Positions 413 to 61,362 of a stretch of DNA of 64,000 nucleotides are shown one piece after another. Origin of the DNA: an uncultured virus (IMG/VR IMGVR_UViG_3300045119_000323) (taxonomy: Duplodnaviria; Heunggongvirae; Uroviricota; Caudoviricetes); the IMG/VR virus record IMGVR_UViG_3300045119_000323. The stretch is one strand, 5' to 3'. Within the stretch, counting starts at the first letter, position 1. Every line of letters starts with the position of its first letter. The translations under genes were made by a program, and so were the position numbers. The notes beneath the pieces were generated by a model, which was not told the DNA's origin, did not search any database, and was given only the letters and a program-made list of their open reading frames with translations.

Positions 413-2025
413 TATTCCTTCGCCCAGTTGCGCTTGTCTTTGGGATCGCCGCCCTGATAGGTGAGGTCTCCCGCCTTGCTCTGGTGCGGCACCAGCGGCT
501 TACCATCAGGACCGTTCCACACCTTGCCGGGATCGCGCTCAGGCAGCTTCGGCTTGATGCCCCACGCCTCCTTACCTTCGGGCGTGGTGATGTCGGTGCT
601 GCTCACCTTGTCGAGTACGTCTTTGGAATTCTTGCCCAGCAGATCATCAATAGTGTGAATCCGACGGTTGCCGTAGTCGATGGTCTTCGATTCCGCCAGC
701 GAGACACCCTTGCCTTCCAACAGCTTGATGGCCTTCTTGACAATAGACTGCAGCGCGCCCGGACCCTTGGCGCTGTCGAACAGACTGGCGATCTCATCCT
801 TCGAGGCCTGCGCCACCTGACCGCCGCTGAGATACTTCGCCAGCTCGTCGCCGATGAACTTCTTAGCGGTCTCGAACTCGGCGATTTCGGTGCCGCCCGT
901 GCTTCCGGCAATCGTGTTCTTGACCCGGTTGAGCAGGCTGTAGTCACCGTTGTCGAGGGCGGCGATGGCGGGCATCATCTCGCCGATGTGGTTCATGCTG
1001 GTGCGCAGCGACGTCACGGTCTGCGCATTCTTGTGATCGCCACCCCACGACTTCTTGTTGTCGTTGACATTGCCGTATTCGCCGTAGTTGAAGCTGCGGT
1101 CGATGGCCATCGCGTCGTCCAAGATGGTGTTCATGCCCTGCTTGGTGCGGCGCTGATCGGTGATTGCCTTTGGATCAAGCTCGTAATTCATGACCTTCCA
1201 CAGCTTGAGGGCATACTGCGGATTCTGCGAAGCGATCTCGGCCAGCTTGGCCCAGTCGATGTTCTTGTTGACCATCTTGTTGGGATCGATTTCCGGGTCG
1301 ACGGTCTTCTGCAGATAAGCCGTCAGCTCCGCCGGTTCCGTAGGCACCGGACCCCCCTGCGGTTTCTGTGTGGCCGTTCCGCTGCCGACCGGCTTGTTAC
1401 CGGTGCCGCCGACCTCGTACATGGTGTTTGGATCGGTCTGCCGGACGATGCCGTACTTGCCCGGACCGAAAGCGTTAGGATAGATGACGTCGCCGTTGTT
1501 CGGATTGACCGTCGGACGCGGCGACTTGACGCCGGCCGCTTCGAGCTGCTCGATCATCTTAAGCGTCTGGTCGGACGTCTTCTGCAGGTTGGCCTCGCGC
1601 TCCTTGAGCGGCTCGGCCTCGAACTCGCCGCGCTTGCGCTGCAGGTCGGCAAGGATGGCGAACGAGTCGCGGTTGTTTTTCTCCAGATTGCCGATGACCG
1701 GCGCGGCGTTGCCCATGGCGCTGCCCAGCTCGGACATGAAGTTGCCGGCGACGCCCGGAGTCGTTTTGAGAAAGCCCGCCGACATCGCGGCACTCACCGC
1801 CGGATCGAAGGCTATGGGGCCGGTCTGGCGTGACGCCTTGAGGCCTTGGATCGCCTCGTCGATGGCGGCGAGGTTGCGCTGGGTCACGTCACCGCGATTG
1901 GCCTGCACCCCGGCGATCTGCTCGCGCGTCTTGGAGAGCGCACCACGATAATCCTTGAGCAGGCCGGCGACTGCGTTCGGATCGGTGTCTTCCGACGGCG
2001 GGATGGTGATGGTGGTGTCGGTCAT
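412..2025 (-). CDS. Putative internal virion (DNA ejection) protein, 537 aa
   Basis: Long, helical-looking ORF with typical codon use, downstream of the tail genes. Function inferred from podovirus synteny. Confidence 0.6.
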   Translation of the reverse strand: MTDTTITIPPSEDTDPNAVAGLLKDYRGALSKTREQIAGVQANRGDVTQRNLAAIDEAIQGLKASRQTGPIAFDPAVSAAMSAGFLKTTPGVAGNFMSELGSAMGNAAPVIGNLEKNNRDSFAILADLQRKRGEFEAEPLKEREANLQKTSDQTLKMIEQLEAAGVKSPRPTVNPNNGDVIYPNAFGPGKYGIVRQTDPNTMYEVGGTGNKPVGSGTATQKPQGGPVPTEPAELTAYLQKTVDPEIDPNKMVNKNIDWAKLAEIASQNPQYALKLWKVMNYELDPKAITDQRRTKQGMNTILDDAMAIDRSFNYGEYGNVNDNKKSWGGDHKNAQTVTSLRTSMNHIGEMMPAIAALDNGDYSLLNRVKNTIAGSTGGTEIAEFETAKKFIGDELAKYLSGGQVAQASKDEIASLFDSAKGPGALQSIVKKAIKLLEGKGVSLAESKTIDYGNRRIHTIDDLLGKNSKDVLDKVSSTDITTPEGKEAWGIKPKLPERDPGKVWNGPDGKPLVPHQSKAGDLTYQGGDPKDKRNWAKE

Positions 2026-2029
2026 GACG

Positions 2030-3685
2030 CTACCTCATCGCGCTCAGGGCACCGGGCGGCGGCCCACCACGCGGCGGCATCGGGATGCCACCCGGAGGTC
2101 CCGGCGGCGGCAGACCACCCAGCGCGCCACGGCCGGCGGCCGGCGGCAACGGCAAACCACCCGGCGCACCCATCGGCGGCATCGGCATACCGCCCGGCGG
2201 GCCCATGCCCTGCGGCGCGGGCGGCTTCTTCCTCGACATGATGCCGCGCTTGACCGGCACCGACCCGCCGACGTCGAACTTGCGCTGCGCGCCCTGCGTG
2301 CCGCGCCGGCCCATCAGGCCGCTGATGCCGACCTTGCCCAGCGCCCCGATGCTGGGAACGCTCGGCCGCGACGCCCCGCCCATGGTCGGCGAAACGACGG
2401 GACCGAATGCCGGCCCGCCCTGCGCGTAGCCCCGGATGCGGCCACCGCGCGCGGCCGTCTGCTGCTGCGGCGCGGGCGGTCCGTACTGCTGGCCGGACGT
2501 GCTGGGCCCGGTGACCGCGTTGTAGATGTTCGGGATGCCGCCGGTCGTCTTGCCCGAGGCGTCGGTCGACGAACCGAGCGTGTTGATCGCGCCCAAGGTG
2601 CCGAAGATGTCGCCGGCAATCGACGGGTTCGAGGTCGACGAGCCGGTGACGCCCGAGGTCGAGGACTGCTGGCCGCTCTGGTACTGCGGGATGGTCAGGC
2701 CGCGCTGCGCGGCGTTCATGAAGTTGACCATCTGGAACGGCCACTGCTGGGCCTGCTGGAACTGCTGGTACTGCGCCGTCAGCGGCAGTTGGTTCTGCTG
2801 CTGCTGCTGGTTGCCGGCCGCCAGCAGCGCCTGATTGTTGATCAGGTTGGTGTTCGACAGCGCGCCGCCGAGGTTCGAGTACGCGCCGGCCATGCCGATG
2901 CCGGAGTTGATCGCGCCCGACGTGATGTTGGCGTTGGTCGAGGCGAGGTTGGTGAGCGCCCCCATGTTGGTGTTGGCCAGACTGCCGAGCTGCGAGCCCG
3001 CGCTCTGCATGCGGCTCTGGTCGGTGTTGAACTGGTTGGCGGCGTTCCAGTACGCCTGATTCTCCATCGTCATGGCGTTGCCCGACTCGGTGTTGCCGAG
3101 ATCGCGCGTCGCGCGGCCGACCATGTTCTGGTAATTCTGCCGGCCGAGCTGGCCCTGTCCCCTGACGAACTGGGAGTTGAGGGTCGGCATCGTGTTTTCG
3201 GCGAAATTCTGCTCGGTCAGTTGATTGGCTCGACCGATTGCCCCCGACGTGTAGGGGTCCATGTAGCTCGACTGGGTCTGCGGGTTGTTCCACGCGCCGG
3301 CCGACTGCGTCAGGAAGCCCTGCCCGGCATCCCACGGTCGCGTCGCCGCGCCGGCCTGATCGAGCGCCGGCTGCGCACTGGTCTGCGGATTGTAGCCCGC
3401 AACATTACCGAGCGCCCCCGATGCCGCGTTGTAGTACGGCTGGTAGGCTCCCGAAGCGTTCTGCTGGATTTGACCGAAGGCCTGATTCTGCGCGTCCGTA
3501 AAGGGCGCGAACATCTTGCTGACGTCGTAGCCCTGATACGGCGTCTGGCCCAGACCCTGCGCCTGCTGCAGTATCTGGTTCACATACTGCATGTACTCAG
3601 GCGACTGAGTCGTCGACTGGTTGGACGAGGCGTTCTGCTGCTGCGCCTGCTGGGTGCCGCCGCTGCCCTGAAATAAGAACCCCAT
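2030..3685 (-). CDS. Putative DNA pilot/ejection protein, Q/N/G-rich, with C-terminal AxGG motifs
   Basis: Likely start MGFLFQGSGG at 3685. YMDPY motif and Gln/Asn-rich helices resemble phage pilot proteins. Carries AARGG, YAQGG and FDVGG near a Pro-rich tail. Confidence 0.6.
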   Translation of the reverse strand: MGFLFQGSGGTQQAQQQNASSNQSTTQSPEYMQYVNQILQQAQGLGQTPYQGYDVSKMFAPFTDAQNQAFGQIQQNASGAYQPYYNAASGALGNVAGYNPQTSAQPALDQAGAATRPWDAGQGFLTQSAGAWNNPQTQSSYMDPYTSGAIGRANQLTEQNFAENTMPTLNSQFVRGQGQLGRQNYQNMVGRATRDLGNTESGNAMTMENQAYWNAANQFNTDQSRMQSAGSQLGSLANTNMGALTNLASTNANITSGAINSGIGMAGAYSNLGGALSNTNLINNQALLAAGNQQQQQNQLPLTAQYQQFQQAQQWPFQMVNFMNAAQRGLTIPQYQSGQQSSTSGVTGSSTSNPSIAGDIFGTLGAINTLGSSTDASGKTTGGIPNIYNAVTGPSTSGQQYGPPAPQQQTAARGGRIRGYAQGGPAFGPVVSPTMGGASRPSVPSIGALGKVGISGLMGRRGTQGAQRKFDVGGSVPVKRGIMSRKKPPAPQGMGPPGGMPMPPMGAPGGLPLPPAAGRGALGGLPPPGPPGGIPMPPRGGPPPGALSAMR

Positions 3686-4152
3686 TACAGCACCTTCACC
3701 ATGGTGGCCGGGCCACGCCACCAGCCGAGCGGATCAAGCACGCGCCGCCAACCCGGCCGGCCCATCTCGAAGATGTAGGCGCAGCGATGCTCGCGCGCGT
3801 AGATCGAGACGGCCCTGTCGAACGAGGCGATCCAGTCCGCCATGCCGATGCCGCCGAGCGCGATGATGTTGAGCGCCTTGCCCTTGCTGCCGCATTCGAC
3901 CTTGGTGACGTAGGCTCCCACGAGGTTGCCGTGGTCGCGGATCGTCCACAGCGTCATGGCGTGGCGCAGCAGGTCGTTGAAGACGTCGTTTGCGCCAATC
4001 AGCGACCATTCGTTGTTGGTCGCCTTGTCGATCCAGCCGAAGACCTGCGACCACACATCCATCGGATGGTCGACCGTGGCGCAGACAATCGCGGGGTTGA
4101 GGTCGCTGTAAAGCTTCCACGAGTCGTTGAGGGGAATGATGTGATCCATCAC
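3685..4152 (-). CDS. Virion-module protein, possibly GNAT-like fold, 155 aa
   Basis: Coupled ORF with a GRPGWRRVL C-terminal motif, as in small proteins that precede ejection genes in podoviruses. Confidence 0.5.
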   Translation of the reverse strand: MMDHIIPLNDSWKLYSDLNPAIVCATVDHPMDVWSQVFGWIDKATNNEWSLIGANDVFNDLLRHAMTLWTIRDHGNLVGAYVTKVECGSKGKALNIIALGGIGMADWIASFDRAVSIYAREHRCAYIFEMGRPGWRRVLDPLGWWRGPATMVKVL

Positions 4153-5024
4153 AGGTAGCTTTCGGGCTCGTGCGCGTCGGGCGAGAACTTGCCCTTGGCC
4201 AGCGCCTTGCCCTTGTGCCGGCGCACATTCGCCCGAAATTTATCGAGCTTGGCCGCGCCCGCGTCGGGCGAGCCGTCGCCCAGCGCCGACACGGTCTCGG
4301 CGTCCATGACGTACTCGTTGGGACTGAGCCGCGCCTCGATGTTGTCGGAGCGGCCATTGCCGCCATTGGGCGGCTGGAAGCCGTGACCGCCGCCGCCGAA
4401 GTCGCCCTTGTCGCGCGGCCCGAGGAAATCCATGCCGCCATGCGCGAAGTGTTCGCGGATCGGCAGGCCCTGCGGCTCCGGCAGGCCGATGAGGTCGGGG
4501 TAGCCGCCGCGTGCCATGCCGCCCTGCGGACCAGCAGGTGGAGCTCCGCCGGCCTGCGGACCAGCAGGTGGAGCTCCGCCGGCCTGCGACATCAGCCCCC
4601 GGATCGCGCTCGTCGGATCGCCGCCGCCGATTCCGGCCGGCGGGATGCCCGCGCCGACGCTCTCGTGCATGCCCTGCACGACGCCCTGCAGCGCCTGCTG
4701 GGCCCCCTTGTGCATGGCCTCGACCAGCGCCTGCTGGTGTTCCATGCGCTGCTTCTGCTGGGTCTCGCCCGAAACCAGCCCGAGGACCCGGTTCACCAGC
4801 CCCTCGTTGCCGGGCTTTACGGGCGGTTTGGGAGGGCCGGCGGGGCCGGGCGGTACACCGGGAGGCATGCCCGGCGGAAGCGCTCCAGCGGGCCCCTGCG
4901 GGCCGCCGGGAGGGGCTCCGCCTGCCGGGCCGGGGGGCGGGCCGGCGGGAGGTCCAGCAGGCGGCCCACCGCCCGCTCCGGGCAGTTGAGATAAGGCTCC
5001 TTGAGGCGGTGGCATAGGCGGCAT
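4149..5024 (-). CDS. Pro/Gly-rich virion protein with a conserved C-terminal GxSDxIxARLSxxEYV domain
   Basis: GGGGAG RBS. MARGG and FAHGG motifs precede GRSDNIEARLSPNEYVMDAETVSALGDG, a pattern I recognise from phage virion and tape-measure proteins. Confidence 0.65.
   Translation of the reverse strand: MPPMPPPQGALSQLPGAGGGPPAGPPAGPPPGPAGGAPPGGPQGPAGALPPGMPPGVPPGPAGPPKPPVKPGNEGLVNRVLGLVSGETQQKQRMEHQQALVEAMHKGAQQALQGVVQGMHESVGAGIPPAGIGGGDPTSAIRGLMSQAGGAPPAGPQAGGAPPAGPQGGMARGGYPDLIGLPEPQGLPIREHFAHGGMDFLGPRDKGDFGGGGHGFQPPNGGNGRSDNIEARLSPNEYVMDAETVSALGDGSPDAGAAKLDKFRANVRRHKGKALAKGKFSPDAHEPESYL
4523..4588. repeat. 30-bp tandem repeat (2 full copies plus part of a third), encoding AGGAPPAGPQ
   Basis: cctgcggaccagcaggtggagctccgccgg repeated exactly. 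Confidence 0.9.
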
Positions 5025-5122
5025 CGAAACGACTCCCCGTGCAGTCGGTCCGCTACCTCAAAGCCGCAGTTGAGCTGGGCCTACCCGTGGTCAGCAGGGG
5101 ACCGAGGTTACTCCTTGACGAC

Positions 5123-5386
5123 TCAAAGCGCGAGAGCCCTGCGCAGCGCGTGCGCCCACTCCCGCCAATCCGAAAATCCAGCGGCACGCGGTGCCTCCGG
5201 CACCGACAGGCAGAGCCAGTCGGCGAACTCTTCCCATGGCAGGTTCTCGTCCATCAGGCGGGTCAGCCCGAGCCGGCTGTTGTAGCCAATCACCGTCTGT
5301 GCCCAGTCCTCCCAGTCCATGAAGTCGGGCTGCGGCAGAGTGCGCTGGATGGTGCGCGGAAAATCCGCACTGATCCTGAGCCCCAT
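5123..5386 (-). CDS. Small hypothetical virion-module protein, 87 aa
   Basis: Coupled to the upstream gene; has W-x-D/E-W-A repeats. Confidence 0.7.
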   Translation of the reverse strand: MGLRISADFPRTIQRTLPQPDFMDWEDWAQTVIGYNSRLGLTRLMDENLPWEEFADWLCLSVPEAPRAAGFSDWREWAHALRRALAL

Positions 5387-6981: not shown

Positions 6982-6988
6982 CGCCGGC

Positions 6989-14716: not shown

Positions 14717-14759
14717 ATAATACCCCCCTTTACATCCGAGTCGTCAAGCAGAACGACTC
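14717..14759 (-). promoter_or_regulatory. Candidate promoter for the capsid genes; its -35 sits within an inverted pair of GAGTCGT words
   Basis: Minus strand TTGACG (14747-14742), 19 nt, TATTAT (14722-14717). GAGTCGT at 14738 and ACGACTC at 14753. Confidence 0.45.
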
Positions 14760-32048: not shown

Positions 32049-32168
32049 CCAACTATCCTAGCGATAAAAGAAACCCCCGTCCATGGGTCATCTCTGGGGG
32101 AGTGACATGGACGGGGGCCGACGCGCGACTTGGGATGGTGGCTGTGGGCTGCCGCGCGCCGTGGGTTC

Positions 32169-33641: not shown

Positions 33642-35168
33642 TCAATCATAGGGGTTGCGTATCTCGCCATCCTCTCGCCGCAGCTCGTCGTAGAGCGCTT
33701 GGTTCTCGCCGAGATCGACGTCGACCATCAGCGAGTCGTCGACCATGTCGCCGTCCTTGCGCTCGGTCGTGACGCCCATGGTCAGCCAGCGGTCGGCGAA
33801 GTATCGCGTCGCCTGACTGAAGCTGTCGATGAAGTCGTCGTGCCGCGTCGTGCCCGGCCCGGCGTAGGTCGTCAGCTCTTTCACGAATGGCTCGCACCAG
33901 CTCCGGGGCTCGCCGCGCACGGCTTTGGATTCGGGCAACCAGATGCGCCCGTTGGCGGCGACGTGGCTGACCGCGTGCAGACGACTCATCTTGTCAGCCT
34001 TGCCGGGATTGTACGGCCAACTGTCGATGCCCTCGTACTGCAGCGTCTGGCGCAACGAGATGCCGGAGCCCTTGTCCTCGATGATCAGCAGGTCAGGGGT
34101 CTTGATCTGCTCGTGGTACTGGCTCGGCCCGATCAGCGGCTTGAAGATCAGGTCGACACGCCGGCCGTAGCGCGCCTTCAGTTCCTGCTTGGCACGCTTG
34201 ATCAGCTCGGGAAAGCCGATCTGCTCGTGCCAGCATTCGAGCAGCAGCATGTGCCACTTGCGCTTCTCGGGGAACACGCCCCACACCGTGCAGGCCGTGA
34301 AGTCGGGCTCGTAACTCTTCTTGTCGAACGTCGCCTCGGTCAGCGCCGTGTCGAGCGAGATGAACACGAAGTCGAACCACGGCAGCGGACGACTCGTCGG
34401 CCACAGGTTAAGCCACGAACGTTTGATGATCGCCGCCTCGCCGACCTCCAGCAGCTCGCCCAGCACCTCCTGCCGGTAGATTTGCGTGCCCTCGTACTGC
34501 GCCAGCTCGTCGAAGAACGCCTCGGCGAGGTTGGCGCGATTTTCCATCGTCGTGCCCATGACGACTCGAACGTCCTTGCGCGCCAGCATGTCCTTGAGCC
34601 AGTCGATAGGACGCGGCGTCGTGGTGTAGAGGCGCTGCGGCTGAACCCGCCGGCCGTCGGCCGTGGTGAAGAACAGGCGGGTCGACAGATCGATGTTGCT
34701 GATCACGTCCTTGGCGTTGTGGCCCCACGTCGCGATCTCGTCGCCCCATGTGAAGTGCGACTGCGGACCGCGCAGTCGATCCGGCGTCTCGGCCGAGAAC
34801 CCGCGAATGATGGTGCCGTTGACCAGCCTGATCTCGAACAGCGAGTTGTTGATCTGCGCAATCATCGGCGCGGGGATCGAGTTGATGAGCCCCGACGGGC
34901 CACCGAAAACGACTCCACGCAGATCGCCATAAGTCGGCGCGATCACATGGATCACGCAGCCGGGGTAGAGCCCCGCGCAGCGTCGCACCCAGCTTGCCCC
35001 GACCAGTGTCTTGCCGAAACCGCGACCGGCCTGCACGACGCACAGGCTCCAGCCGTCAATCGGGATGATCTGCTTGTAACGCGCGCGCTCGGCCCAGCGA
35101 TGCTCGGCCTCGATGAAGGCCATCTCGTGATCGCTGGTCGCCGCGAGTCGTTGGCGGAGGGTGCTCAC
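33642..35168 (-). CDS. terL: Terminase large subunit, 508 aa
   Basis: Walker A AGRGFGKT, LRGPQ, Walker B WGDEIA, coupling TTTP, RNase H-like SLDTA and HDDFIDS. Confidence 0.95.
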   Translation of the reverse strand: MSTLRQRLAATSDHEMAFIEAEHRWAERARYKQIIPIDGWSLCVVQAGRGFGKTLVGASWVRRCAGLYPGCVIHVIAPTYGDLRGVVFGGPSGLINSIPAPMIAQINNSLFEIRLVNGTIIRGFSAETPDRLRGPQSHFTWGDEIATWGHNAKDVISNIDLSTRLFFTTADGRRVQPQRLYTTTPRPIDWLKDMLARKDVRVVMGTTMENRANLAEAFFDELAQYEGTQIYRQEVLGELLEVGEAAIIKRSWLNLWPTSRPLPWFDFVFISLDTALTEATFDKKSYEPDFTACTVWGVFPEKRKWHMLLLECWHEQIGFPELIKRAKQELKARYGRRVDLIFKPLIGPSQYHEQIKTPDLLIIEDKGSGISLRQTLQYEGIDSWPYNPGKADKMSRLHAVSHVAANGRIWLPESKAVRGEPRSWCEPFVKELTTYAGPGTTRHDDFIDSFSQATRYFADRWLTMGVTTERKDGDMVDDSLMVDVDLGENQALYDELRREDGEIRNPYD

Positions 35169-37109: not shown

Positions 37110-37292
37110 TCATTCAACGTCACGCAATTTGTCATCTTCCACGACGGCATCGCGCATGCCGGCCAGCAGCTCGGCCAATGTCTTGGCGAACTCAACGTTC
37201 TCTTCCATCAGCTCGAACAGCACGTTGACACGGCGCTCAAGCTCCGCGATGCGCTTCTCCTGCAGTCGCGCCGGATGGTTCTCGACGTTCAT
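37110..37292 (-). CDS. Small coiled-coil protein, 60 aa
   Basis: ATGA-coupled to the methyltransferase gene. Confidence 0.6.
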   Translation of the reverse strand: MNVENHPARLQEKRIAELERRVNVLFELMEENVEFAKTLAELLAGMRDAVVEDDKLRDVE

Positions 37293-37852
37293 CTTGCCCT
37301 CATGATCTTCGTGTGATCCATCGCTCGCGGCCGGAACACGAACCAGCAGAAATCGACTGCGCCGTTGTGGCCTTTGTCGGGAACGTCAGGCGGCAGCATC
37401 TTGAGCCGTCCGCAGATGATGATCCGCTCCAAGAACGGCAGCAAGTCGGCGCGCTTCTTGGCGGCGATCCATGTCATGCGCAGCAGCACGCAGACCTTGC
37501 CGTGGCTCGGCACGACGTGCAGGGCGTGCCGCACATGCTCGTCGGCCGCGCTGAACGGCGGGTTCATGACGATGTTGGCTGTCCGGGGAGGCTGCACCAC
37601 GACACTCAAGAAGTCCGCCTCAAAGGGCATCACACTGTGCAGCTCGGGAAACTGCATGCCGAGGCCGAGATACTTGTCGCTGGCCGCGATGCTGCGCTTG
37701 TCGATGCCGGCGTCGAGCAGCTCCCTGACGATGGCCCCGCGCCCGCAGCTCGGCTCCCAGATGCCGCCGTACAGTCGCAGGTTAGACAGCAGCATGTGAA
37801 CCGCCTCGGGCGCGGTCTCGTAACTGTCGTTGGGATCGCGCGCGTCCTCCAT
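37289..37852 (-). CDS. DNA amino-methyltransferase (probably N6-adenine); start uncertain
   Basis: D.Y.T, WEPSCGRG SAM-binding motif and IVMNPPF catalytic motif. Confidence 0.85.
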   Translation of the reverse strand: MEDARDPNDSYETAPEAVHMLLSNLRLYGGIWEPSCGRGAIVRELLDAGIDKRSIAASDKYLGLGMQFPELHSVMPFEADFLSVVVQPPRTANIVMNPPFSAADEHVRHALHVVPSHGKVCVLLRMTWIAAKKRADLLPFLERIIICGRLKMLPPDVPDKGHNGAVDFCWFVFRPRAMDHTKIMRAR

Positions 37853-37886: not shown

Positions 37887-38564
37887 TTACGGGCCGTGGC
37901 CGTTCGGCCGGCGCGGATCGTGCGGGTCGGTGAGGTCGCGCTCTTCCGGCGTATCGTTGCTTTGGACGAGCGACTCGCCGCGCCCTTGGTTGTCTTCCGC
38001 TTCACGACGCGCCGCCTCCATGATCTCTGCCCGGCGCACAGTATCGCTATCCTGTCGATGCGTGTCATGTGGAGATTGCGCCACCGGCTCGATGTCGGTG
38101 ATGTTGCGCGCGTTAGATGCTGGATCGTTGAGTCGTCCATCGACGAAGCCGCGCACGACAGCCTCAATCGTCGCCTGCACGTCGGTCCGACGACGGGCCT
38201 CCTCGGGATCGATGTCGTCCTTGCGCAGCCCCGCCTTGCCCTCGATGCGATCCGCGACCAGCGACCACGCCTGCATGTCGCCGCGTATGCCCTTGCGCAC
38301 CGCAGCCTCGGCCCACGCGATGACCGCCGGGATCGAGGTCAGCTCGGGATGTTTGGTAGTCGGATCAGGAGTCGTCGTGAGCAACGACTCGCGGCTCATC
38401 AGCTCCTCGGCCGGCCGCATCAGCGCCAGCCACAGGGCGACCTTGACCGGGTGCCGCATGCTCGCCAGCGCGCGCCAGTCTCGATCCGCTAGGCGAACGC
38501 CGGGCACGCTGTCGAGCAGGCCGAGATTGGTTACCGGAGGGTTACTGGGGGGCTCGTCGGGCAT
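37887..38564 (-). CDS. Putative terminase small subunit, 225 aa
   Basis: First gene of the late arm; A..GD..A...VADRIEGK helix pattern. Confidence 0.55.
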   Translation of the reverse strand: MPDEPPSNPPVTNLGLLDSVPGVRLADRDWRALASMRHPVKVALWLALMRPAEELMSRESLLTTTPDPTTKHPELTSIPAVIAWAEAAVRKGIRGDMQAWSLVADRIEGKAGLRKDDIDPEEARRRTDVQATIEAVVRGFVDGRLNDPASNARNITDIEPVAQSPHDTHRQDSDTVRRAEIMEAARREAEDNQGRGESLVQSNDTPEERDLTDPHDPRRPNGHGP

Positions 38565-41061: not shown

Positions 41062-42063
41062 TCAGCGCCTCATGTATTGCGGTCGGGCGCGCGGTCGCCT
41101 CGGCTGCTGTCGTTTCCAGCGCTCGCGCTGCAGCAGCCTGCGCCAGTGATCGAAGAGCCGGTAGTCGCGTTCTACATTTTCGATGTGCGTGATTGCCCAC
41201 TGGCGGAAGTAGCCGAATTCGCGGGCGCATTCCTCGGCGTTGGCGGTGTCGCCAATCTGCGCCAGCATCATGCCGGCCATCCGGGTCAATGCCTCGAACC
41301 GGTTCACGTCGGACCGGCCGTGGCCGATATGCATGCCGACCAGCTCGTCGAGCGAGACCTGCCGGCTCAGGCCCAGCCCGTTGCGCGGCAGGTCGCCGGG
41401 CCCCGGACCACCATTCAGCGTCGCCTGTCCAGAGGTTTGGGTTTCGAGATGTACGATTTGGTCGAGAACTTTCACCGACGACTCGGAGCCATAGGCGATC
41501 TCGACCAGAGTGGGCGCGGCCTTGCGGTGAATGCTGCCGGCGATCCGCACCGGCTGGTGGGCGCGGCCGATACCAAACGAGTCGTCGGTGCCGAGTGTAC
41601 GCGCCGCCAGTGACCGCAGCCGGCACACCCGCTCGGGGTTCGAGTCGTCGGTCCGCCAGTACAGGTGGGCCTTCTTCTGGCCCTCGACGATGCCGCCCGA
41701 CCACACCGCCAGCGACGGCGTGCCGAGCAGGTTCGTGGCGCGCATACATTTGTCGGCGATGTCGCCGGCATCGACGTCGATCAGCAGCACCGAAAGACCG
41801 ACCACGTCGGCTGCACCGGCCCCGCCCGGCCGGACAAATCCGGGGATGCAGTAGGCGGCCAGCCCGCGTTCGTTGCAGTCCTGCGTAAATTTGACGATGG
41901 TCCGGTTGCGGACAGACGAGCGCGCGTCGACCCACACAAGGTGCGGTGGGGTGTCACGGCGCGCCTCGGGCAGGCCACGCAGCGCAATCGCCGCGCCGGC
42001 CGGCGGGTCGCGGAACACCACGTCGCAGTAGGCGTTGACGTAGTCGGGATTGATCTCGGGCAC
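41062..42063 (-). CDS. RepB-like/AEP-type primase, about 333 aa
   Basis: LIDVD, PSL..WSGG, K.HLYW and R..GS.H.K motifs; GTG start after GGAGAG. Confidence 0.8.
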   Translation of the reverse strand: MPEINPDYVNAYCDVVFRDPPAGAAIALRGLPEARRDTPPHLVWVDARSSVRNRTIVKFTQDCNERGLAAYCIPGFVRPGGAGAADVVGLSVLLIDVDAGDIADKCMRATNLLGTPSLAVWSGGIVEGQKKAHLYWRTDDSNPERVCRLRSLAARTLGTDDSFGIGRAHQPVRIAGSIHRKAAPTLVEIAYGSESSVKVLDQIVHLETQTSGQATLNGGPGPGDLPRNGLGLSRQVSLDELVGMHIGHGRSDVNRFEALTRMAGMMLAQIGDTANAEECAREFGYFRQWAITHIENVERDYRLFDHWRRLLQRERWKRQQPRRPRARPQYMRR

Positions 42064-42185
42064 GCGCTCTCCCACCCGCAAACGGCGGTGTTGACAGACG
42101 GGGCGCGGTCGCTAGGATAGTTTTCGCGCCCCGTTATCTCAGCGGATTAAGGGTAGCGCTAATCCGACAGGATTGGCAAGGGAAG

Positions 42186-42219
42186 AGGCCCGCATGACCC
42201 CCGTCGGCGGGCCTTTTTT
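42186..42219 (+). terminator. Intrinsic terminator
   Basis: aggcccgc...gcgggcct stem followed by a T6 run. Confidence 0.75.
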
Positions 42220-42367
42220 CCGTCACCACTACATGTTGTGGTGGTCCGCACAGCGGCTCTTGACTAAGCTGTCGATATTAAACTAGCGTGGGTCAAGTGC
42301 TGGCGCATTTCGCTCGGCATCAATCCGTTCAGCCCGACCGGGGACTGGGCATAGCTGGAGAATATCT

Positions 42368-43399
42368 GTGAAAATTGCAGTCAGAGACCTGTTGCCGAAC
42401 CCGTATCGGCATCTGGAGCGCTACCCCATCGTCGAGGACAAGGTCGCCAACCTCGTCGCCTCGATCAATCAGACCACCTTCTGGGACAACCTGCTGGCCC
42501 GCAAAGCCCCCGGCAAGCCCGGCAAGTACGAGCTGGCCTACGGCGTCCACCGCCGTGAAGCCCTCAAGCGCGCCCGCATCACCGAGATCGACATCCCGGT
42601 CCGTGCGCTCGACGACGCCACGATGATCAGGATCATGGCCAACGAGAACATGGAGGAATGGGGCCATTCGGCGGCTATCGAACAGGAAACCATCCGCGCC
42701 GTGGTCGAGGGCTACGCCAACAGCAAATTCGAGTTGCCGATGGCCACGCGGAGAAATGGCCCGTACTACGATGCCGCCTCCGACCTGCCGTTCAAGCAGC
42801 ATGAACCGGACTCCCGCTCAAGCGAGAGTCCGATCCGGCCCTACAATGTCGAGGCACTGATCAGTTTCCTCGGCTGGAAGCGCTATAAAATCGAGGCCGC
42901 GATTGGCTCGCTCGGGCTGATCTCCGAGCGCCTGATCGACGAACGGTCGCTTGCCAGCCTGACCTCCCGGCAGTCGCAGGTCGTCACCGAGCAGGTCCGC
43001 CGCGTGGTCAGGGAAACCAGCCAGCCGACGCTGGCACGCGAGGTCGGCCGCCGCATCGCCGCCGGCATGCGGCGCTCGGTTTCCGGCCATGACCGCGCCG
43101 GTAACGAGCGCAACGTGCAGGACGTCACCATCCACAATGCGCGGGCCCGCGTCGATGAGATGATTGCACCCCATGTGCCGCGCCAGCAGCCGCAGCGCAC
43201 GCTGCCCGACGCCGCCCGCTTCATCGAGGCGCTGGTCCGCCAGATGCTCGACATGCCGAGCGACCAGCTCAAGACCAAGGTCGACAGCGTGATCGCCGCG
43301 CGCGGCGACATCCCGGCCCGCGAGGTTCGTCATCTGATCAGTGCCCTGAAGGGCGTCGCCAAGCGCTTCGAGCGCATGGCCGAGAAGCTGGAGGCCTGA
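42368..43399 (+). CDS. ParB/Srx N-terminal domain protein, 343 aa
   Basis: PNPYR...LVASI...YELAYGVHRREA...IPVR...ANEN. Confidence 0.8.
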   Translation: MKIAVRDLLPNPYRHLERYPIVEDKVANLVASINQTTFWDNLLARKAPGKPGKYELAYGVHRREALKRARITEIDIPVRALDDATMIRIMANENMEEWGHSAAIEQETIRAVVEGYANSKFELPMATRRNGPYYDAASDLPFKQHEPDSRSSESPIRPYNVEALISFLGWKRYKIEAAIGSLGLISERLIDERSLASLTSRQSQVVTEQVRRVVRETSQPTLAREVGRRIAAGMRRSVSGHDRAGNERNVQDVTIHNARARVDEMIAPHVPRQQPQRTLPDAARFIEALVRQMLDMPSDQLKTKVDSVIAARGDIPAREVRHLISALKGVAKRFERMAEKLEA

Positions 43400-43403
43400 A
43401 GTC

Positions 43404-44102
43404 ATGACCTATAGCCGCAATCCCCTGAGCAAGCGCGCCAAGCCCCTGAGTGTCGACGTCGCCGACGCCATCGAACGCATCGTGGCACAATCCGACGCCA
43501 CCCTGCCGGTACCGATCAGCCGCGACGAGATCGTCAATATGCTGATCTACATCGCCCAGACCGACGACGACGGCGTCCACATCGCCCCGACCGCCCCGGC
43601 CGCCGTGGCCATGGCGCGGGAGTTCAATAACATCCTGACCAACACCGTGACCTTTCAGGCCGGCTACAAGCGCTACGAGGAGCGCGCGGCGCGGCCCGTC
43701 GTGCCGGTCGTCGACTACTTCTTCCGGGTGCAGGGCGGCAGCAGCGATTCAGTCGAGGACATGTCGCAATTCGACATCACGCAGTCGCTGCCCAAGCGGC
43801 GTGGCCGCGTGCCGGTCGACAACAACGGCGTGAAAGAATGGCTGCGCGACGAGGAGACCAACGAAATCGTGACCATGGGTGAATTGTCCGGAATCGTGGT
43901 CTTCCCGGTCGGTTCCCGTTCGACCCTGCTGCGGGCGTGGCTGGCCCGCCGCGCCAACGTCTCGTTGGGATCGATGACCGGCACGGTCGCCTCCATCGAG
44001 CACGCCCGTCCCGATTCACGCGCGGTCGAGACGCTCAAGGGGGCCGGGGAGGCCATGCGCCCGGTCCTGACGCGGGCGCTGCCCAAGCCGAAGACGCCAT
44101 AA
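43404..44102 (+). CDS. Hypothetical protein co-transcribed with the ParB-like gene, 232 aa
   Basis: GGAGG RBS; 4-nt gap after the ParB-like gene. Confidence 0.75.
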   Translation: MTYSRNPLSKRAKPLSVDVADAIERIVAQSDATLPVPISRDEIVNMLIYIAQTDDDGVHIAPTAPAAVAMAREFNNILTNTVTFQAGYKRYEERAARPVVPVVDYFFRVQGGSSDSVEDMSQFDITQSLPKRRGRVPVDNNGVKEWLRDEETNEIVTMGELSGIVVFPVGSRSTLLRAWLARRANVSLGSMTGTVASIEHARPDSRAVETLKGAGEAMRPVLTRALPKPKTP

Positions 44103-44123
44103 TGCCGTTGATGTCTTGGTCCG

Positions 44124-44173
44124 AAAATAATCGTCAGGATGGTGTTGACAGGTGCTGTCAATGAGCGCATAGA
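44124..44173 (+). promoter_or_regulatory. Repeated early promoter/operator, copy 1
   Basis: AAATAATCGTCAGGAT-n4-TTGACAGgtgCTGTCAA...CATAGA with a 17-nt spacer. Confidence 0.8.
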
Positions 44174-44216
44174 TCGGTCCTCGGGCAACACCGCCCACCC
44201 ACAGAAGGATCGTTTC

Positions 44217-44714
44217 ATGCAAAACCTGTTCAACGCCATCGTCCTCGAAGTCGGCTTCTACAGCTCGCGTCGCGCCAACACCCCGGCCAACCGCAAGGCG
44301 TGGTTCTGCGGCGAAGTCGCCGAGCTGCGTCTGAACAGCAATTTCAACACCGAGGCCGAGTACCGCCTGATCACCGCCGCCTTCGTGATCGACGCAGTCC
44401 GCATCAAGGTCGACGCCAAGCTGCGCGCCGGCAACGCCGGCCCCGGCTTCATCCTGCATTACCGCAGCGGCGGCACGCCCTATCACTGCAAGACCAGCTA
44501 CGTCGCCAAGGGCCCGGCCCAGCGCGCCGCCGACAAGCTCAACGCCCGCGACCCGCGCTCGCCCAACCCCTACGTCGTGTCGAGCGTCTACGAGTACGTC
44601 GCCAAGACGCGCGGCAAGCTGGTCCAGAACCTGATGAGCCGGACGTGGGTCATGGAGACCACCGGCACCAACTACTCGATGAGCGTCGCCTCGGAGAGCT
44701 ACTGGTCGAACTAG
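44217..44714 (+). CDS. Early hypothetical protein, 165 aa
   Basis: AAGGA RBS; strong codon bias; follows the promoter. Confidence 0.8.
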   Translation: MQNLFNAIVLEVGFYSSRRANTPANRKAWFCGEVAELRLNSNFNTEAEYRLITAAFVIDAVRIKVDAKLRAGNAGPGFILHYRSGGTPYHCKTSYVAKGPAQRAADKLNARDPRSPNPYVVSSVYEYVAKTRGKLVQNLMSRTWVMETTGTNYSMSVASESYWSN

Positions 44715-44808
44715 GCCGCCAGCGCCCCATACAGCCCCGCCACGGCATGAGCCCCGTGTGCGGGGCATTGGCGGTGCAGGGCCCAACCCCCCGCCACAGG
44801 AGCCTCTA

Positions 44809-45218
44809 ATGACCTACAAAGTGTATCTCACCATCGAGCTGCCGGAGACCTACGCCGACCGCGAGATGGCCATGGACGCCGCCGTCGAGGCGCTGCGCCA
44901 CGCCGTCGAGGTGCAGGTCACCAACGCCGACGTAACGACTCGACCCATCGAGGCGCGGGTGTTCGCCGAGGGAACCATCCTGCACGGCGGCAAGCGCGAA
45001 TTCATCGTCGACATCAACGATGGTGCGATCTGATGCCCACCCTGCCGGTCTCGGGCGACGCCATCGGCATCTGCCTGCAGATGTGCGCGCTCTACTTCAC
45101 CGCGCGCTGGTTCGCACTGTGCGAGGGCAACATGCTGGCAGCAGCGGTGGCGCTCGCTCTCACCACGATCAACCTCGTCGCGCTGGGCTTCACGCTGTGG
45201 CACTGGTTCGGGCTCTGA
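44809..45218 (+). CDS. Two small hypothetical ORFs (44809-45033, 45033-45218)
   Basis: AGGAG RBS; TGATG coupling. Confidence 0.6.
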
Positions 45219-49702: not shown

Positions 49703-49703
49703 G

Positions 49704-50593: not shown

Positions 50594-50657
50594 AGTATGT
50601 CCTTTCCAAAAATGGCCTATTTGTTGGGTGCCGCCGGCCAGTAAGGCGGCATCGACC

Positions 50658-50760
50658 TTTATGGACCCCTTCCTGTCCACAGTCAACGAAATCGACAGGA
50701 CAAAATTCGACAGGATAATGTGATTCGGCTGTTGACCCTGCGTCCTGAGTCGTTCATAAC
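50658..50760. promoter_or_regulatory. Divergent promoter pair of the TTGAC-N17-CATAA class, with two TCGACAGGA boxes between them
   Basis: Minus: TTGACT (50686-50681), 17 nt, CATAAA. Plus: TTGACC (50732), 17 nt, CATAAC. Boxes at 50692 and 50707. Confidence 0.75.
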
Positions 50761-50803
50761 GATCTCACGGCCGCCGGCCGCCAACCCAAAGAGGTTCCGC
50801 AGA

Positions 50804-52066: not shown

Positions 52067-52923
52067 TGCCCGACGCAGTCCCCATGACCGTCCTCAAGGT
52101 CAGTCATCACAACGCGCAGCACATCGCGACGCGCTACCCCTACGCCGCCTACGGATCGAACCTGATGATGGCGCAGATCAACGAGCGCTGCCCGCGCGTC
52201 GAGCTGGTCACCGCCGGCTCGCTGATTGGCCACCGCCTCGACTTCGCGAAAGTCGCGACGATCACGGCCGACAGGGAGTCGTCGGTCCCGGTCGGCATCT
52301 ACGCGCTGAACGCCACCGACATCGAACGCCTCGACAAGAAAGAGGGCATGGGCCGCGTCTATGACCGCTTTCTCGTGACGCCGATCACCGACGACAACCG
52401 GGCGCTGCGCTGCTTCACCTACATCAAGCGCGACCACGTTCTGGAGCCGCCGACGCCGGAGTATTTCGGCAAGCTGCTGCACGGCTATCGCGACTGGCAC
52501 TTCGACGACCGCCGGCTGCGCCGGGCGCGCGAGCGCGCCGTCGAGGCGTGGGATGCGGCGGCTCCGGCGCGCGCCGCCGCCGACCGGATGCTGCACAAGA
52601 TGGGCTTCCGGCATGGCGACAAGTCGGGCGTGCGCTGGCAGTCGGCCGGTGAGGCGTGGCGGCAGGGCGACATGTGGGAGCCCGAGGGCAGCAACGTCGT
52701 GCCGCTGCACCACGCAGCCAAGCGCTACGTCACGCTGCGCCACGATCAGGTTGAATGGGGCCAGCGCGGCGAGGATTTCTACTTCCGCCAGAAGGGCACG
52801 CGCGTGTGGTACAAAGACGTCTCCGGCCACGAGCATGTCAGCGCCGGCATGGTGTGCGGCGAGCTGGCGACCAACCTGCCGGGGGCGGGAGCCTACAAAC
52901 CCATCGAGAAGGGCAAGGGCTGA
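52066..52923 (+). CDS. Gamma-glutamylcyclotransferase (GGCT/AIG2-like) with a C-terminal extension, 285 aa
   Basis: Y.AYGSNL...RCP, LD..EG...Y, P...Y...L..GY. Confidence 0.85.
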   Translation: MPDAVPMTVLKVSHHNAQHIATRYPYAAYGSNLMMAQINERCPRVELVTAGSLIGHRLDFAKVATITADRESSVPVGIYALNATDIERLDKKEGMGRVYDRFLVTPITDDNRALRCFTYIKRDHVLEPPTPEYFGKLLHGYRDWHFDDRRLRRARERAVEAWDAAAPARAAADRMLHKMGFRHGDKSGVRWQSAGEAWRQGDMWEPEGSNVVPLHHAAKRYVTLRHDQVEWGQRGEDFYFRQKGTRVWYKDVSGHEHVSAGMVCGELATNLPGAGAYKPIEKGKG

Positions 52924-59350: not shown

Positions 59351-60118
59351 TCAGGGGCGGATGAGACGCTCCCCGAGAGGCTCAAAATTGACCGCCACGG
59401 GTACCTTGCGGTGGCGCTGGGCAAAGGCCAGCAGCAGGTCGAAAGCCACCATGCCGGCGTGAAACAGGCCGTCCGGACGCCTTACCCGTTTGATACGCCG
59501 GCCGCCCGCCGTGCCGGCGGTAAGGTTGCCGTCGCGCATCCGGCCGATGATGAAGTAGCCGACGTCGAGGCCGTTCTGGCTGGTCAGGCCGTCGATCAGC
59601 GCCTTGGGCGCGGGCCGCGCCTCGATGGTCTTGAGGTAGCCCTGCTTGGCCATGGCACGGGCGAAGGCATAAATTTCCCGGTCGGTGAGCCGCAGTTGTC
59701 CGAAACCGGTGACAGCGCGGAATACGCCGCCAAAACGACTCGCGAGCTGGGCGACCGGCTCCTCGAAGCCCTTCCAGCGCTGGATCGCCATGGTCGGCCC
59801 GATCAGGAACGACTCGCCGCGCCGGACACCCACGCCAATATGCGCCCGGCGATCCTTGAAGTGTGAATTCAACAGGAAGAACGTCAGGCCGTCAGGCGAA
59901 CTGGCGGCCACCAGATGGCGGCCGTCGTGGGCCTTGGTCTTGGGCGAGGCGTCCTCGTGACGCTTGCCCTGCACGGCGACACCGGCAGTCATGCCATAGG
60001 CCGTGCGGATATGCTTGAGGAATGCCGTGGTGTCGATCAGGCCTTCCTTGCCGGCATTGCGGCGCGATGCTGCGGCCGGGGCCACCGCCGTGACCCGGTT
60101 CAAGCTGAGTGTATTCAT
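59351..60118 (-). CDS. DUF932-like protein, 255 aa
   Basis: I.T...L, A.Q, H, LLNSH and G..R pattern; divergent. Confidence 0.5.
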   Translation of the reverse strand: MNTLSLNRVTAVAPAAASRRNAGKEGLIDTTAFLKHIRTAYGMTAGVAVQGKRHEDASPKTKAHDGRHLVAASSPDGLTFFLLNSHFKDRRAHIGVGVRRGESFLIGPTMAIQRWKGFEEPVAQLASRFGGVFRAVTGFGQLRLTDREIYAFARAMAKQGYLKTIEARPAPKALIDGLTSQNGLDVGYFIIGRMRDGNLTAGTAGGRRIKRVRRPDGLFHAGMVAFDLLLAFAQRHRKVPVAVNFEPLGERLIRP

Positions 60119-60192
60119 GTCGATAAAATAACGGGTTAGGCGCGCCGGATCAATCCTTGCTTTATTTTGGTCTCCCGGCTATCCTGTCGATT

Positions 60193-60654
60193 ATGAAAAC
60201 ACATACGCATCTCGTCCTCGTCTACGGCACCTTGATGAAGGATAACCCCAACAACCACGTCATCGTTGGCCGCAAGGGCAGCGACGCGGTTCTGCTGGGC
60301 GAGGCCTACACTCTGCAGAAATTCTTCATGTCGGGCGGCGGCTTCCCGCGCGTGTCGCGCAAGGTCCTGCGTGACTTCCCGGCCAGCGTCAAGGCCAGCG
60401 ACTACTGTTCGCAGGTCTCCGGCGAGCTGTGGCGGGTCAACGACGAGTCGTTGACCAACTGCGACCGCCTCGAAGGCCATCCGACCTTTTACCGCCGCGA
60501 GCAGGTCCCGGTCGTGATGAAGACCAGCCGGGCGCGCCATCTGGCGTGGATGTATATCATCACCGAGCCGCCCGAGGCGCTGCAGTGCCTGCCCAAGAAC
60601 AAGGCAGGCGTGCTGCGCTGGGAATCGCCATGGAAGGAGTCGCGCGATGCCTGA
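60193..60654 (+). CDS. Second gamma-glutamylcyclotransferase-like protein, 153 aa
   Basis: VYGTL, FP, V.GEL..V, DRLEGHP.FYRR, AWMY; preceded by TTGCTT-17-TATCCT, so apparently leaderless. Confidence 0.85.
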   Translation: MKTHTHLVLVYGTLMKDNPNNHVIVGRKGSDAVLLGEAYTLQKFFMSGGGFPRVSRKVLRDFPASVKASDYCSQVSGELWRVNDESLTNCDRLEGHPTFYRREQVPVVMKTSRARHLAWMYIITEPPEALQCLPKNKAGVLRWESPWKESRDA

Positions 60655-60858
60655 GCCCCTGTCGGAGACCTTTTTCCGCAACGCCATCGCCAGCGGCGCT
60701 ATCGTGCCGCCGCCCGGCGAGGGCCGGCGGTCCACGACGACTCGCGGCCTCGCGGTCGCCGGCTGGTGCCTCGCCGTGCTGGGCGCATTGGCACTGGCGG
60801 TGGCCTACGCGGTCAACTGGCTGTAGCCTCTCCCCCCGACTGCACGAGGGAGAGGCCT

Positions 60859-61170
60859 TTGAAAATCGTCAATAGCGCGCTGGTCGACATGACCGGCAAT
60901 GTCATCAAGTCGGGCGACGTCGACCTGACCGTGGCGATTGTTCTCGTCAACTGCGCCCTGTCACCGACGCCCGACGGCAAGACACGCTCGAAATCGGAGG
61001 TCGCGAGTCGTTACGATCTCGCTTTGCGGCTCAATGCCCTCAAGCTCGGCGAGAGCATCGACATCCCGGTCGAAATGGTCGCCCAGTTCACCGACGACGT
61101 CCTACGGGTCTACACCACCATCATCGCCGGCCAGATGCTGCCCATCCTCGACGGCCAGACCGTCAACTGA
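60859..61170 (+). CDS. Hypothetical protein, 103 aa
   Basis: GGAGAGG RBS with TTG start. Confidence 0.6.
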   Translation: MKIVNSALVDMTGNVIKSGDVDLTVAIVLVNCALSPTPDGKTRSKSEVASRYDLALRLNALKLGESIDIPVEMVAQFTDDVLRVYTTIIAGQMLPILDGQTVN

Positions 61171-61362
61171 AGCGACCGGCACCAGCTCATCACTGAAGTA
61201 GAGCGACGACTCGGAATGCTTGGTCAGCAGAAGTCGATCCTCGATCTCGTAGCGCACGAGGTACAGAACGACTCCGCTTCGCCCGGTGCTCTGCGATCCG
61301 ATGACCCGACCGAGCTTGTTGAGCGGCTTGATCCGGACATGCTGGCCCGAAGCGAATTCCAT
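61102..61362 (-). CDS. Small SH3/KOW-like protein
   Basis: F..GQHVRI...G.V...YLVRY; GGGAG RBS. Confidence 0.5.
   Translation of the reverse strand: MEFASGQHVRIKPLNKLGRVIGSQSTGRSGVVLYLVRYEIEDRLLLTKHSESSLYFSDELVPVASVDGLAVEDGQHLAGDDGGVDP

Follow-up and report, generated by a model that had tools for sequence, protein, structure and literature searches.

A lineage-variable word built on GAGTC is dispersed under selection through the genomes of a clade of uncultured tailed phages

Why should a phage genome carry one short, asymmetric word far more often than its composition predicts, within and between genes and on both strands alike? We address this question in a stretch of 64,000 nucleotides (hereafter, the window) from the uncultured virus IMGVR_UViG_3300045119_000323 (Caudoviricetes), in which an earlier note, made from the letters alone, had singled out GAGTCGTY as a selected, dispersed recognition site. 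Our results identify bGAGTCGTY (b, any base except A; Y, C or T) as a recognition word under positive selection in double-stranded phage DNA; its core, GAGTC, is an asymmetric version of the adenine-methylation site GANTC. What the word is for can be addressed with less confidence, and our tentative reading is that it acts as a methylation-linked, dose-dependent mark of 'self' with a lineage-specific reader.

GAGTCGT and its complement ACGACTC occur in 88 dispersed copies between positions 1758 and 61274 of the window (mean gap 684 bp), 45 on the forward and 43 on the reverse strand, matching the 87 copies and roughly even strand split counted by eye in the earlier note. The excess amounts to 9- to 17-fold, at 1.4 copies per kb, and is stronger than the earlier note had estimated. 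Dinucleotide shuffling yields 10.3 ± 3.0 copies (100 shuffles, maximum 20), and an order-3 Markov model predicts 10.5, or 5.0 with the sites masked, placing the expectation at 5–10. Under the highest-order Markov model the expectation rises to 41.1, and GAGTCGT remains the top 7-mer (z 7.3). A synonymous-codon shuffle within genes (300 rounds) gives a total of 35.0 ± 3.1 (maximum 45), a figure that includes 21 sites outside gene calls held fixed by the procedure, so that about 14 copies are expected in genes against 67 seen. The enrichment persists under all of these null models, the codon- and dinucleotide-preserving ones included.

The base following GAGTCGT is C in 39 copies, T in 45, and A or G in two each, extending the word to GAGTCGTY in 84 of 88 instances (83 had been noted before), and the preceding base is C in 55, T in 16, G in 14 and A in 3. 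The logo of the 88 copies, whose seven invariant positions are a consequence of the search definition, reveals no conservation beyond bGAGTCGTY. Every copy contains GAGTC and thus fits GANTC, a pattern that a random 8-mer contains with a probability of about 1.6% by simple arithmetic; conversely, GT directly follows GAGTC in 88 of its 117 occurrences in the window.

The word is placed with little regard to what the surrounding sequence encodes. Genes were called roughly by third-position GC content, giving 68 genes that cover 84% of the window; the calls are imperfect, and one of them fused a methyltransferase with its upstream neighbor. Sixty-seven of the 88 copies lie wholly within called genes, using all six frame/strand classes, which upholds the view that protein sequence does not explain the word. 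The remaining 21 fall outside called genes, at about 2.1 per kb compared with 1.24 per kb inside, and the claim that many copies sit at gene starts, stops or ribosome-binding sites is only loosely true when judged against these rough calls. The use of disfavored codons is borne out: 17 of the 81 CGA, 11 of the 67 ACT and 10 of the 69 AGT codons in called genes fall inside the word. Among positions in called genes at which the word could be written by synonymous change, 67 of 237 (28%) are filled in the window and 81 of 220 (37%) in the related contig G407 (57 kb, 83% complete, the missing part corresponding to 46–59 kb of the window), compared with one of 77 in the motif-lacking relative G408. 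Frames in which cheap codons suffice are 62–71% full in the window and up to 94% (15/16) full in G407, while frames requiring CGA or AGT-CGT are 17–25% full. Occupancy is equal for the GAGTCGT (24/93, 0.26) and ACGACTC (43/144, 0.30) senses, so the raw 43:24 bias merely reflects opportunity. The target is duplex DNA rather than RNA, and under the reading proposed below the word would not be a transcription or translation signal.

Along the window the two orientations are interleaved, and gap analysis of the 88 copies detects neither regular spacing nor clustering, the coefficient of variation of inter-copy gaps being 0.98 against 0.98 ± 0.10 for random, Poisson-like placement. The largest gap (3,293 bp) is a word-free stretch of 3.3 kb at 41649..44934 that holds a ParB-like gene and two neighbors. 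The genes of this block have no homologue in G001, a 69,077 bp IMG/VR contig (99% complete) whose large terminase subunit (TerL) is 82% identical to that of the window, so the block is probably a recent acquisition. Genes with a G001 homologue carry 1.41 copies per kb against 0.68 for those without (p = 0.045), and this difference, together with the empty ParB-like block, fits gradual accumulation of the word in long-resident DNA. The ParB-like protein, which had been put forward as a candidate reader, is abandoned as a general one, given its absence from G001 and the lack of word copies in its block.

Comparison with relatives reveals conservation above background at individual sites. G001 aligns collinearly with some 30 kb of the window at approximately 75% nucleotide identity and contains 101 copies of the word against 6 of a reversed control word. 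Within aligned blocks, 16 of 42 window copies are identical in G001, compared with 19.0% of control 7-mers taken from all aligned sequence and 15.6% of those from flanking sequence. Five near-identical contigs (1.3–3.5% divergence), which overlap each other and are hence not independent, have 2 changes in motif positions against 11.4 expected. To judge from these alignments, single sites are under some purifying selection, and most of them turn over while density holds.

The enrichment has clear phylogenetic limits. Using TerL (33642..35168, reverse strand) as the marker to delimit the clade, relatives with at least 63% identity are all enriched, one lineage excepted, with 1.5–2.1 copies per kb in loci L003–L009 and L014–L019. 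Whole contigs hold 103 copies in 57 kb (G407), 29 in 18.6 kb (G409), 29 in 13.7 kb (G410), 22 in 15.6 kb (G411) and 26 in 13.2 kb (G415). In a 20-row TerL tree the nine enriched rows group together (support 81/84), G408 branching just outside, and TerL relatives at 44–58% identity, including two contigs from assemblies of bacterial metagenome-assembled genomes, hold 0–2 copies. The Caulobacter phages RW, RLK, KcrB and GB2A, closest by TerL among named phages, lack the word, RW having 5 copies in 62 kb; the apparent enriched 8-mers of RW trace to a tandem pentapeptide-repeat gene. PaMx11, which has a PolA of the same type (36% identity), contains no comparable word.

The most informative variation comes from three sister lineages, G412 (37 kb), G413 (14.6 kb) and L262 (6 kb), which carry GAGTCAG(A) and are represented by fragments that are 63%, 32% and 24% complete. 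The full variant GAGTCAGA occurs 17 times in G412 against 0.8 expected and 10 times in G413 against 0.4, and GAGTCAG is present in 26, 13 and 9 copies, respectively, on both strands. It fills 22 of 87 synonymous-accessible positions in G412 and 10 of 34 in G413, i.e. 25–29%, and is spread over each of the five frame classes in which it creates no stop codon. The two words are mutually exclusive, with GAGTCAG at 0/110 in the window and GAGTCGT at 6/112 in G412. A scan of all GANTCNN 7-mers (z ≥ 6) over loci of at least 9 kb among L014–L087 and L255–L333 flagged 16 loci, all from the groups in which GAGTC is followed by GTY or by AGA. On this comparison, the GAGTC core is constant and the 3′ triplet lineage-specific. 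Four of the eight GAGTCGT copies of G412 (locus L335) lie within 1 kb, at 22034–23094 in its adaptor/tail-fibre region, a segment that may have been imported from a GTY-type phage.

The core of the word directs attention to the gene at 37289..37852 (reverse strand), which encodes a 187 aa S-adenosylmethionine (SAM)-dependent methyltransferase assigned to PHROG 799 'DNA methyltransferase' (E 2e-36). Its sequence contains an EPSCGRG motif followed by NPPF, its family profile weakly matches Erm, M.TaqI and an N6-adenine methylase, and the product is probably a small, gamma-type N6-adenine methyltransferase. Its homologues have no Pfam domain, and the sole functional name among them is 'adenine-specific DNA methylase', the rest being unnamed or 'hypothetical protein'. 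A further search with the enzyme family yielded 80 loci, of which 55 were analyzed. Homologues with at least 47% identity come from 11 loci on 11 different contigs, and all 11 carry one of the two words (7 GTY, 4 AGA), with GANTC at 0.83–1.13 of expectation; loci of homologues at 43% identity or less carry neither. The proposed link of the word to GANTC and to this methyltransferase is supported by all 88 copies, which contain GAGTC, and by 11 of 11 close-homologue loci, which have a GAGTC-centered word.

The same contrast is apparent when loci are grouped by presence of the gene. The seven methyltransferase-positive TerL loci all have GANTC observed/expected ratios of 0.84–0.99, compared with a median of 0.03 for 45 methyltransferase-negative viral loci of at least 8 kb. 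The exceptions among the latter are L046 and five loci of the enriched clade, which are probably fragments missing the gene. TerL relatives without the methyltransferase (L024–L087; e.g. L028, L061, L085, L086) are almost devoid of GANTC, many loci having none against 60–155 expected over the two strands. Such a loss goes well beyond ordinary avoidance of restriction sites and points to strong GANTC-directed restriction in the hosts of these relatives. A 301 aa open reading frame (ORF) of the window (31147–32052, reverse strand) contains a Lar-type restriction-alleviation domain, which adds to the methyltransferase as an indication that restriction systems exert pressure on the phage. Resolved by central base, the observed/expected ratios for GASTC and GAWTC are 0.87 and 0.70 in the window, 1.01 and 1.00 in G001, 1.12 and 0.53 in G407, 1.01 and 0.30 in G412, and 1.34 and 0.16 in G413.

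Our tentative interpretation, held at well below even confidence, is that duplex phage DNA carries a 'self' word that is tied to methylation, acts in proportion to its copy number and is read by a factor specific to the lineage. The small adenine methyltransferase of the phage would methylate the GAGTC core, and a factor differing between phage lineages would then recognize this core plus the triplet on its 3′ side. Each additional copy would bring a small gain, so that the word would spread to nearly every place that the encoded proteins tolerate, and the resulting dense methylated word would mark phage DNA as 'self', either for protection from a host nuclease or for recognition by the phage's own DNA machinery. 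A broader version, which we regard as possible but doubtful, would make the word a clade-wide 'self' code, in which a methylatable GAGTC plus a lineage triplet is written by the phage methyltransferase and read by a co-evolving reader in packaging, protection or polymerase capture. The methyltransferase may target either GAGTC or GANTC. Overall, the earlier interpretation is partly supported, its recognition word and its GANTC/methyltransferase link standing and its ParB-like reader falling; of the connections considered, the one to the adenine methyltransferase and the GANTC/GAGTC methylation site has the best support.

Several observations weigh against the 'self' word. The methyltransferase has no useful Pfam match and no relative in the PDB, and a 187 aa enzyme is unlikely to read 8–9 bp by itself. 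Methylation would explain tolerance of GAGTC, not a 9- to 17-fold excess, so a reader must be assumed, and none was found. The scarcity of GAWTC in G412 and G413 may mean that the enzyme covers GAGTC rather than all GANTC, although slower recovery from an ancestral purge may also account for it. Methyltransferase, TerL tree and word type share one phylogeny, so their co-occurrence may be due to shared descent rather than cause. The variant triplet could reflect different hosts rather than a phage-encoded reader: the M15 endolysin common to the GTY clade is missing from G412 and G413, so the two word types may infect different hosts and the reader may be encoded by the host. The phage-specific reader proposed before is favored, in the form of a lineage-specific one, by the sister variant and questioned by the endolysin difference. 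Finally, the sequence blocks of one candidate reader, the conserved gene just upstream of the methyltransferase, do not track word type, and the N-terminal half of the window's protein is closer to those of GAGTCAGA-type phages than to that of GTY-type G407.

This candidate (37887..38564, reverse strand; 225 aa) occupies the usual small-terminase position, and the order neighbor, methyltransferase, TerL is kept in all lineages of the wider clade, every one of which has a homologue of it at 37–61% identity. Its structural model (pLDDT 70) is helical, with a hairpin, long C-terminal helices and a possible winged-helix part; the top Foldseek rows are mostly MarR-type winged-helix regulators, at non-significant E-values (0.3–1). 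It has no Pfam or PHROG match at cut-off, although weak similarity to DUF5681, short of the Pfam threshold, is seen in 25 of 31 family members, and it is not similar to the annotated small terminase of RW (hhalign probability 0.1). The protein is probably a small terminase or another DNA-binding protein, the putative small-terminase assignment being supported by gene position only. Outside the structural module, and within the covered part of G407 (PolA, SNF2 and the amidoligase fall in its missing part), the few genes common to the window, G001 and G407 are the methyltransferase, this neighbor, the endolysin, a 91 aa protein, a GGACT protein and a 255 aa protein (59351..60118, reverse strand). 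The latter belongs to a small metagenome-only family of 38 members, with only three loci in IMG/VR. Its confident model (pLDDT 92) places conserved His and Arg residues on a five-stranded sheet and resembles no solved fold clearly (best Foldseek E 0.24; best VIA Z 6.2), and the ESM Atlas gave no hit.

Alternative explanations must account for the same pattern of copies. One, which we judge unlikely, holds that the methylated word is a high-affinity box for host GcrA, which travels with sigma-70 RNA polymerase, and that it serves to concentrate polymerase on the phage genome or to titrate GcrA away from cell-cycle promoters of the host. In published accounts, the GcrA box (YGAKTCK/G, consensus TGATTCG) is an asymmetric GANTC extension read by a monomer in an m6A-dependent manner, and a ranking of 32 sites places TGAGTCG third and AGATTCA last (PMC4647560, PMC9976885, PMC5887438). 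The fit of the word to this box is partial. YGAGTCG, a subset of YGAKTCG/K, accounts for 71 of the 88 copies, as the previous figure of about 70 had indicated; docking of this kind would work in either orientation and at any position, and would favor extra copies. No RNA polymerase gene was found in the profile scans of the phage's called ORFs, and phages of the phiCbK type encode GcrA homologues, showing that phages manipulate the pathway. Enrichment in the window is confined, however, to two of the eight YGAKTCK words, the YGAGTCG forms (CGAGTCG, 68 against 14.1 expected; TGAGTCG, 17 against 7.7), confirming that the word is stricter than CcrM or GcrA needs. TGATTCG, the leading published site (3 against 4.2), and CGATTCG (7 against 7.7) are not enriched, and the GATTC test in G001 gives 1 against 5.4; YGAGTCT is avoided (0 against 11.9) even though K permits T. 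The TY extension lies outside the known box, and the sister word GAGTCAGA does not fit it, having an A after the core like the last-ranked site. GcrA sites lie at promoters, while the phage sites are intragenic and genome-wide, and main divergent promoter gaps such as 42081–42368 have no copies. No GcrA homologue (PF07750) was found in a six-frame translation of G001. Two further proposals strike us as quite improbable. In one, a GAGTC-type nickase of phage or host would cut one strand at or near the word for replication, recombination or ejection, in keeping with a sharply defined word used on both strands. Enzymes of the PleI, MlyI and Nt.BstNBI family recognize GAGTC and cut four bases 3′ of it, on the side where GTY or AGA is conserved; however, they are not known to read the spacer, and a Type IIS site with unspecified spacer does not match a GT fixed in 88 of 117 cases and then Y in 84 of 88. 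Known nicked phages have from a few to about 15 nicks, not 88–103. Scans of the phage ORFs with Pfam, PHROGs and NCBIfam produced no nuclease candidate, and those of the window ORFs with Pfam and PHROGs none of PleI/MlyI/Nt.BstNBI type. Pseudomonas phage tf does have localized single-strand interruptions (PMC3517423). The nicks of T5, tf and LUZ24-like phages lie at a defined short consensus, but at few sites. In the other proposal, the small-terminase-like neighbor binds the word, perhaps only when methylated, so that terminase would find phage DNA anywhere on the concatemer and ignore host DNA; in the host genomes sampled, the density of the word stays at or below 0.05 per kb. The gene order kept throughout the wider clade, the helical model with its winged-helix rows and the weak DUF5681 matches would suit such a role, as would the precedent of P1 pac, where repeated hexamers with Dam sites require methylation and a phage-encoded methyltransferase and packaging genes lie nearby. 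P1, however, has seven elements in one 162 bp site and not 88–103 copies genome-wide. The neighbor's failure to follow word type, its lack of similarity to the RW protein and the non-significant fold evidence count against this role, and terminase cleavage at 88 places would fragment the genome unless each site were used very rarely.

The remaining rivals fare worse. That the phage has borrowed a host Chi, uptake sequence or other genome-wide word is very unlikely. Chi is likewise a 7–8 nt asymmetric word whose number is under selection, and phages can be selected to carry it; those without RecBCD inhibitors have host Chi at the host-like density of about 0.2 per kb, with host observed/expected ratios of about 2.3–2.4 (PMC3784561). 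The phage word, in contrast, reaches 1.4–2.1 per kb at 9- to 17-fold excess, has no counterpart in sampled host genomes and takes a different triplet in sister lineages, and its even, interleaved strand distribution does not show the polarity of a replication-linked signal. GAGTCGTY falls short of its reversed control in the five bacterial genomes found via TerL-like loci. A sample of 401 genomes from the class to which one of them, G003, belongs puts CGAGTCGTY at about 0.05 per kb at most, usually far below control, whereas the window has about 0.8; two of the 401, G246 and G046, are marked as unpublished and contribute counts alone. A few sampled genomes do have the word 2- to 4-fold over the reversed control, the five with the highest ratios containing 0.05–0.29 GAGTCGT per kb; none of the 401 + 5 genomes comes near the phage's density, which makes a host-wide signal such as Chi unlikely. 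Use of the word as a primase or replisome start site, about one per 1.4 kb per strand and roughly of Okazaki-fragment size, is highly improbable. Per-strand density and the use of both strands agree with it, and the window encodes a VapE-type primase-helicase and a PolA, but spacing is no more even than random, known primase sites are 3–5 nt long, and G407, with 103 copies, has instead a 698 aa DUF5906/VapE-like protein without a tblastn match to the window's, so that clade members differ in the supposed reader. Least probable of all is that the word has no function and arises from base composition, from codon or dipeptide preferences, or from a repair bias of the very-short-patch type. GATCAGG and GAATTC, two other enriched words, did prove to be coding effects confined to certain frames; GAGTCGT, however, uses six frames with equal strand occupancy, recruits rare codons, is denser outside genes, is conserved above background and is missing from RW as well as from the other TerL relatives that fall outside the clade. 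Its 21 one-mismatch neighbors occur near expected counts with none drained, and the loss of neighbors that very-short-patch repair would cause is not seen. The tests run bring this explanation close to refutation. We also consider it rather unlikely that the answer lies outside everything listed here.

Two other known systems invite comparison. DNA uptake sequences (DUS in Neisseria, USS in Haemophilus) are bacterial chromosome signals read by competence machinery, and resemble the phage word in being short, asymmetric, present at about one per kb on both strands and within genes in all frames, with occasional inverted pairs and with density kept while single sites turn over. They differ in that the phage word resides in lytic-type phages, has a methylation-site core and attains no comparable density in the sampled bacterial genomes. 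The stoperators of cluster A mycobacteriophages likewise comprise tens of asymmetric sites over a phage genome, but they are 13 bp long, mostly intergenic and oriented with transcription, whereas 67 of the 88 copies here lie in genes with equal occupancy of both orientations. No phage case with such density, or with a lineage-specific variant word, was found in literature searches confined to an open-access library.

Some local arrangements of the word deserve mention. A convergent pair, GAGTCGT-N8-ACGACTC, lies in an intergenic gap at 14738..14759 (copies at 14738 and 14753), while in the orthologous gap of G001 two copies in direct orientation lie 16 nt from each other. A second pair with the same 8 nt spacer (38369..38390; copies at 38369 and 38384) overlaps the 5′ end of ORF 37887–38564, whose start codon is placed tentatively. 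About 0.03 occurrences of two pairs sharing this spacer are expected by chance, by our estimate. The arrangement does not recur in G001, G407, G409–G411 or G415, and a probe of IMG/VR with the convergent pair returned 81 stretches (80 loci counted), of which two are motif-rich, both from one lineage. In G407 (locus L250), six same-strand copies at 7850–8387 form pairs 63 bp apart (7850/7913, 8120/8183, 8318/8381) at distances of about 200–270 bp, reflecting a tandemly repeated coding unit that carries the word in a gene of no assigned function. Among bacterial genomes, contig C7 of the Maricaulis genome G004 has six one-strand GAGTCGTY copies in 3.2 kb (3928–7090), probably in a repetitive gene. 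The strand-polarized copies of genome G111, the one inspected among the five with the highest ratios, were set aside as a composition effect (50% GC, GC skew ±0.45, no shared logo); this bacterial genome of about 1.8 Mb (loci L338–L357) has contig GC skews of ±0.27 to 0.48, an extreme strand asymmetry.

Other words behave differently. GAATTC occurs 28 times in the window (e.g. 626, 5707, 13907, 40467, 61354), about 2.9 times expectation and mostly as Glu-Phe GAA-TTC, and is wholly absent from G001 (69 kb), L015, L020 and RW; ACGCGT, GAGCTC, CGTACG and CAATTG are strongly depleted in the window. Relatives have repeated 8–10-mers of their own at about 7–9 copies per locus, CGTGTAAACG-like in L061 and GCACGGGAC in L030, and GTAGCACA/TGTGCTA is repeated in G413 (L336) and L005; these repeats may be promoters or operators.

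The window itself is a portion of a phage genome of about 68 kb, as an identical methyltransferase protein sits on a 68,072 bp contig. Profile scans of its proteins (Pfam, PHROGs, NCBIfam) covered the called ORFs and identify a T4-type large terminase, major capsid protein, SU10-type adaptor, tail-collar protein, ejection protein and M15 endolysin; a 2083 aa protein is also encoded. The DNA-metabolism block comprises the VapE primase-helicase, ParB-like protein, PolA, an SNF2 helicase, a DUF6011 protein, an amidoligase, two GGACT proteins and Pam3 gp33/gp34-like proteins, the amidoligase and the two gamma-glutamyl-cyclotransferase-like genes (47431–52923, 60157–60654) adjoining the Pam3 gp33/gp34-like genes and PolA. 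Neither an RNA polymerase nor a thymidylate-synthase-like gene was found in the Pfam/PHROG scans of these ORFs. The window has no DNA-level match to any named phage. By TerL the nearest named phages are Caulobacter RW, RLK, KcrB and GB2A (47% identity), marking the phage as a distant relative of the RW group, and by PolA they are PaMx11 and Ab18-type Pseudomonas phages (36–37%). In the RW record (L001/L002), the first 2.7 kb or so (TerL fragment, small terminase, small genes) recurs at the right end, and a methyltransferase lies between two TerL pieces. Near-identical DNA is present in assembled Logan contigs from 20 sequencing runs of soil, rhizosphere and mine material, spread over 20 studies; one of these runs may be the source sample.

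Bacterial chromosomes offer textbook cases of dispersed words with a selected copy number, among them Chi, uptake sequences and KOPS. If true, a methylation-linked self-mark would provide a handle on how phage and host DNA are discriminated without bulk base replacement, and the occurrence of GTY and AGA triplets in otherwise syntenic phages constitutes a natural experiment for finding the reader. Should the word prove to be a clade-wide 'self' code, it would represent a phage counterpart of bacterial uptake sequences or Chi, with changeable specificity.

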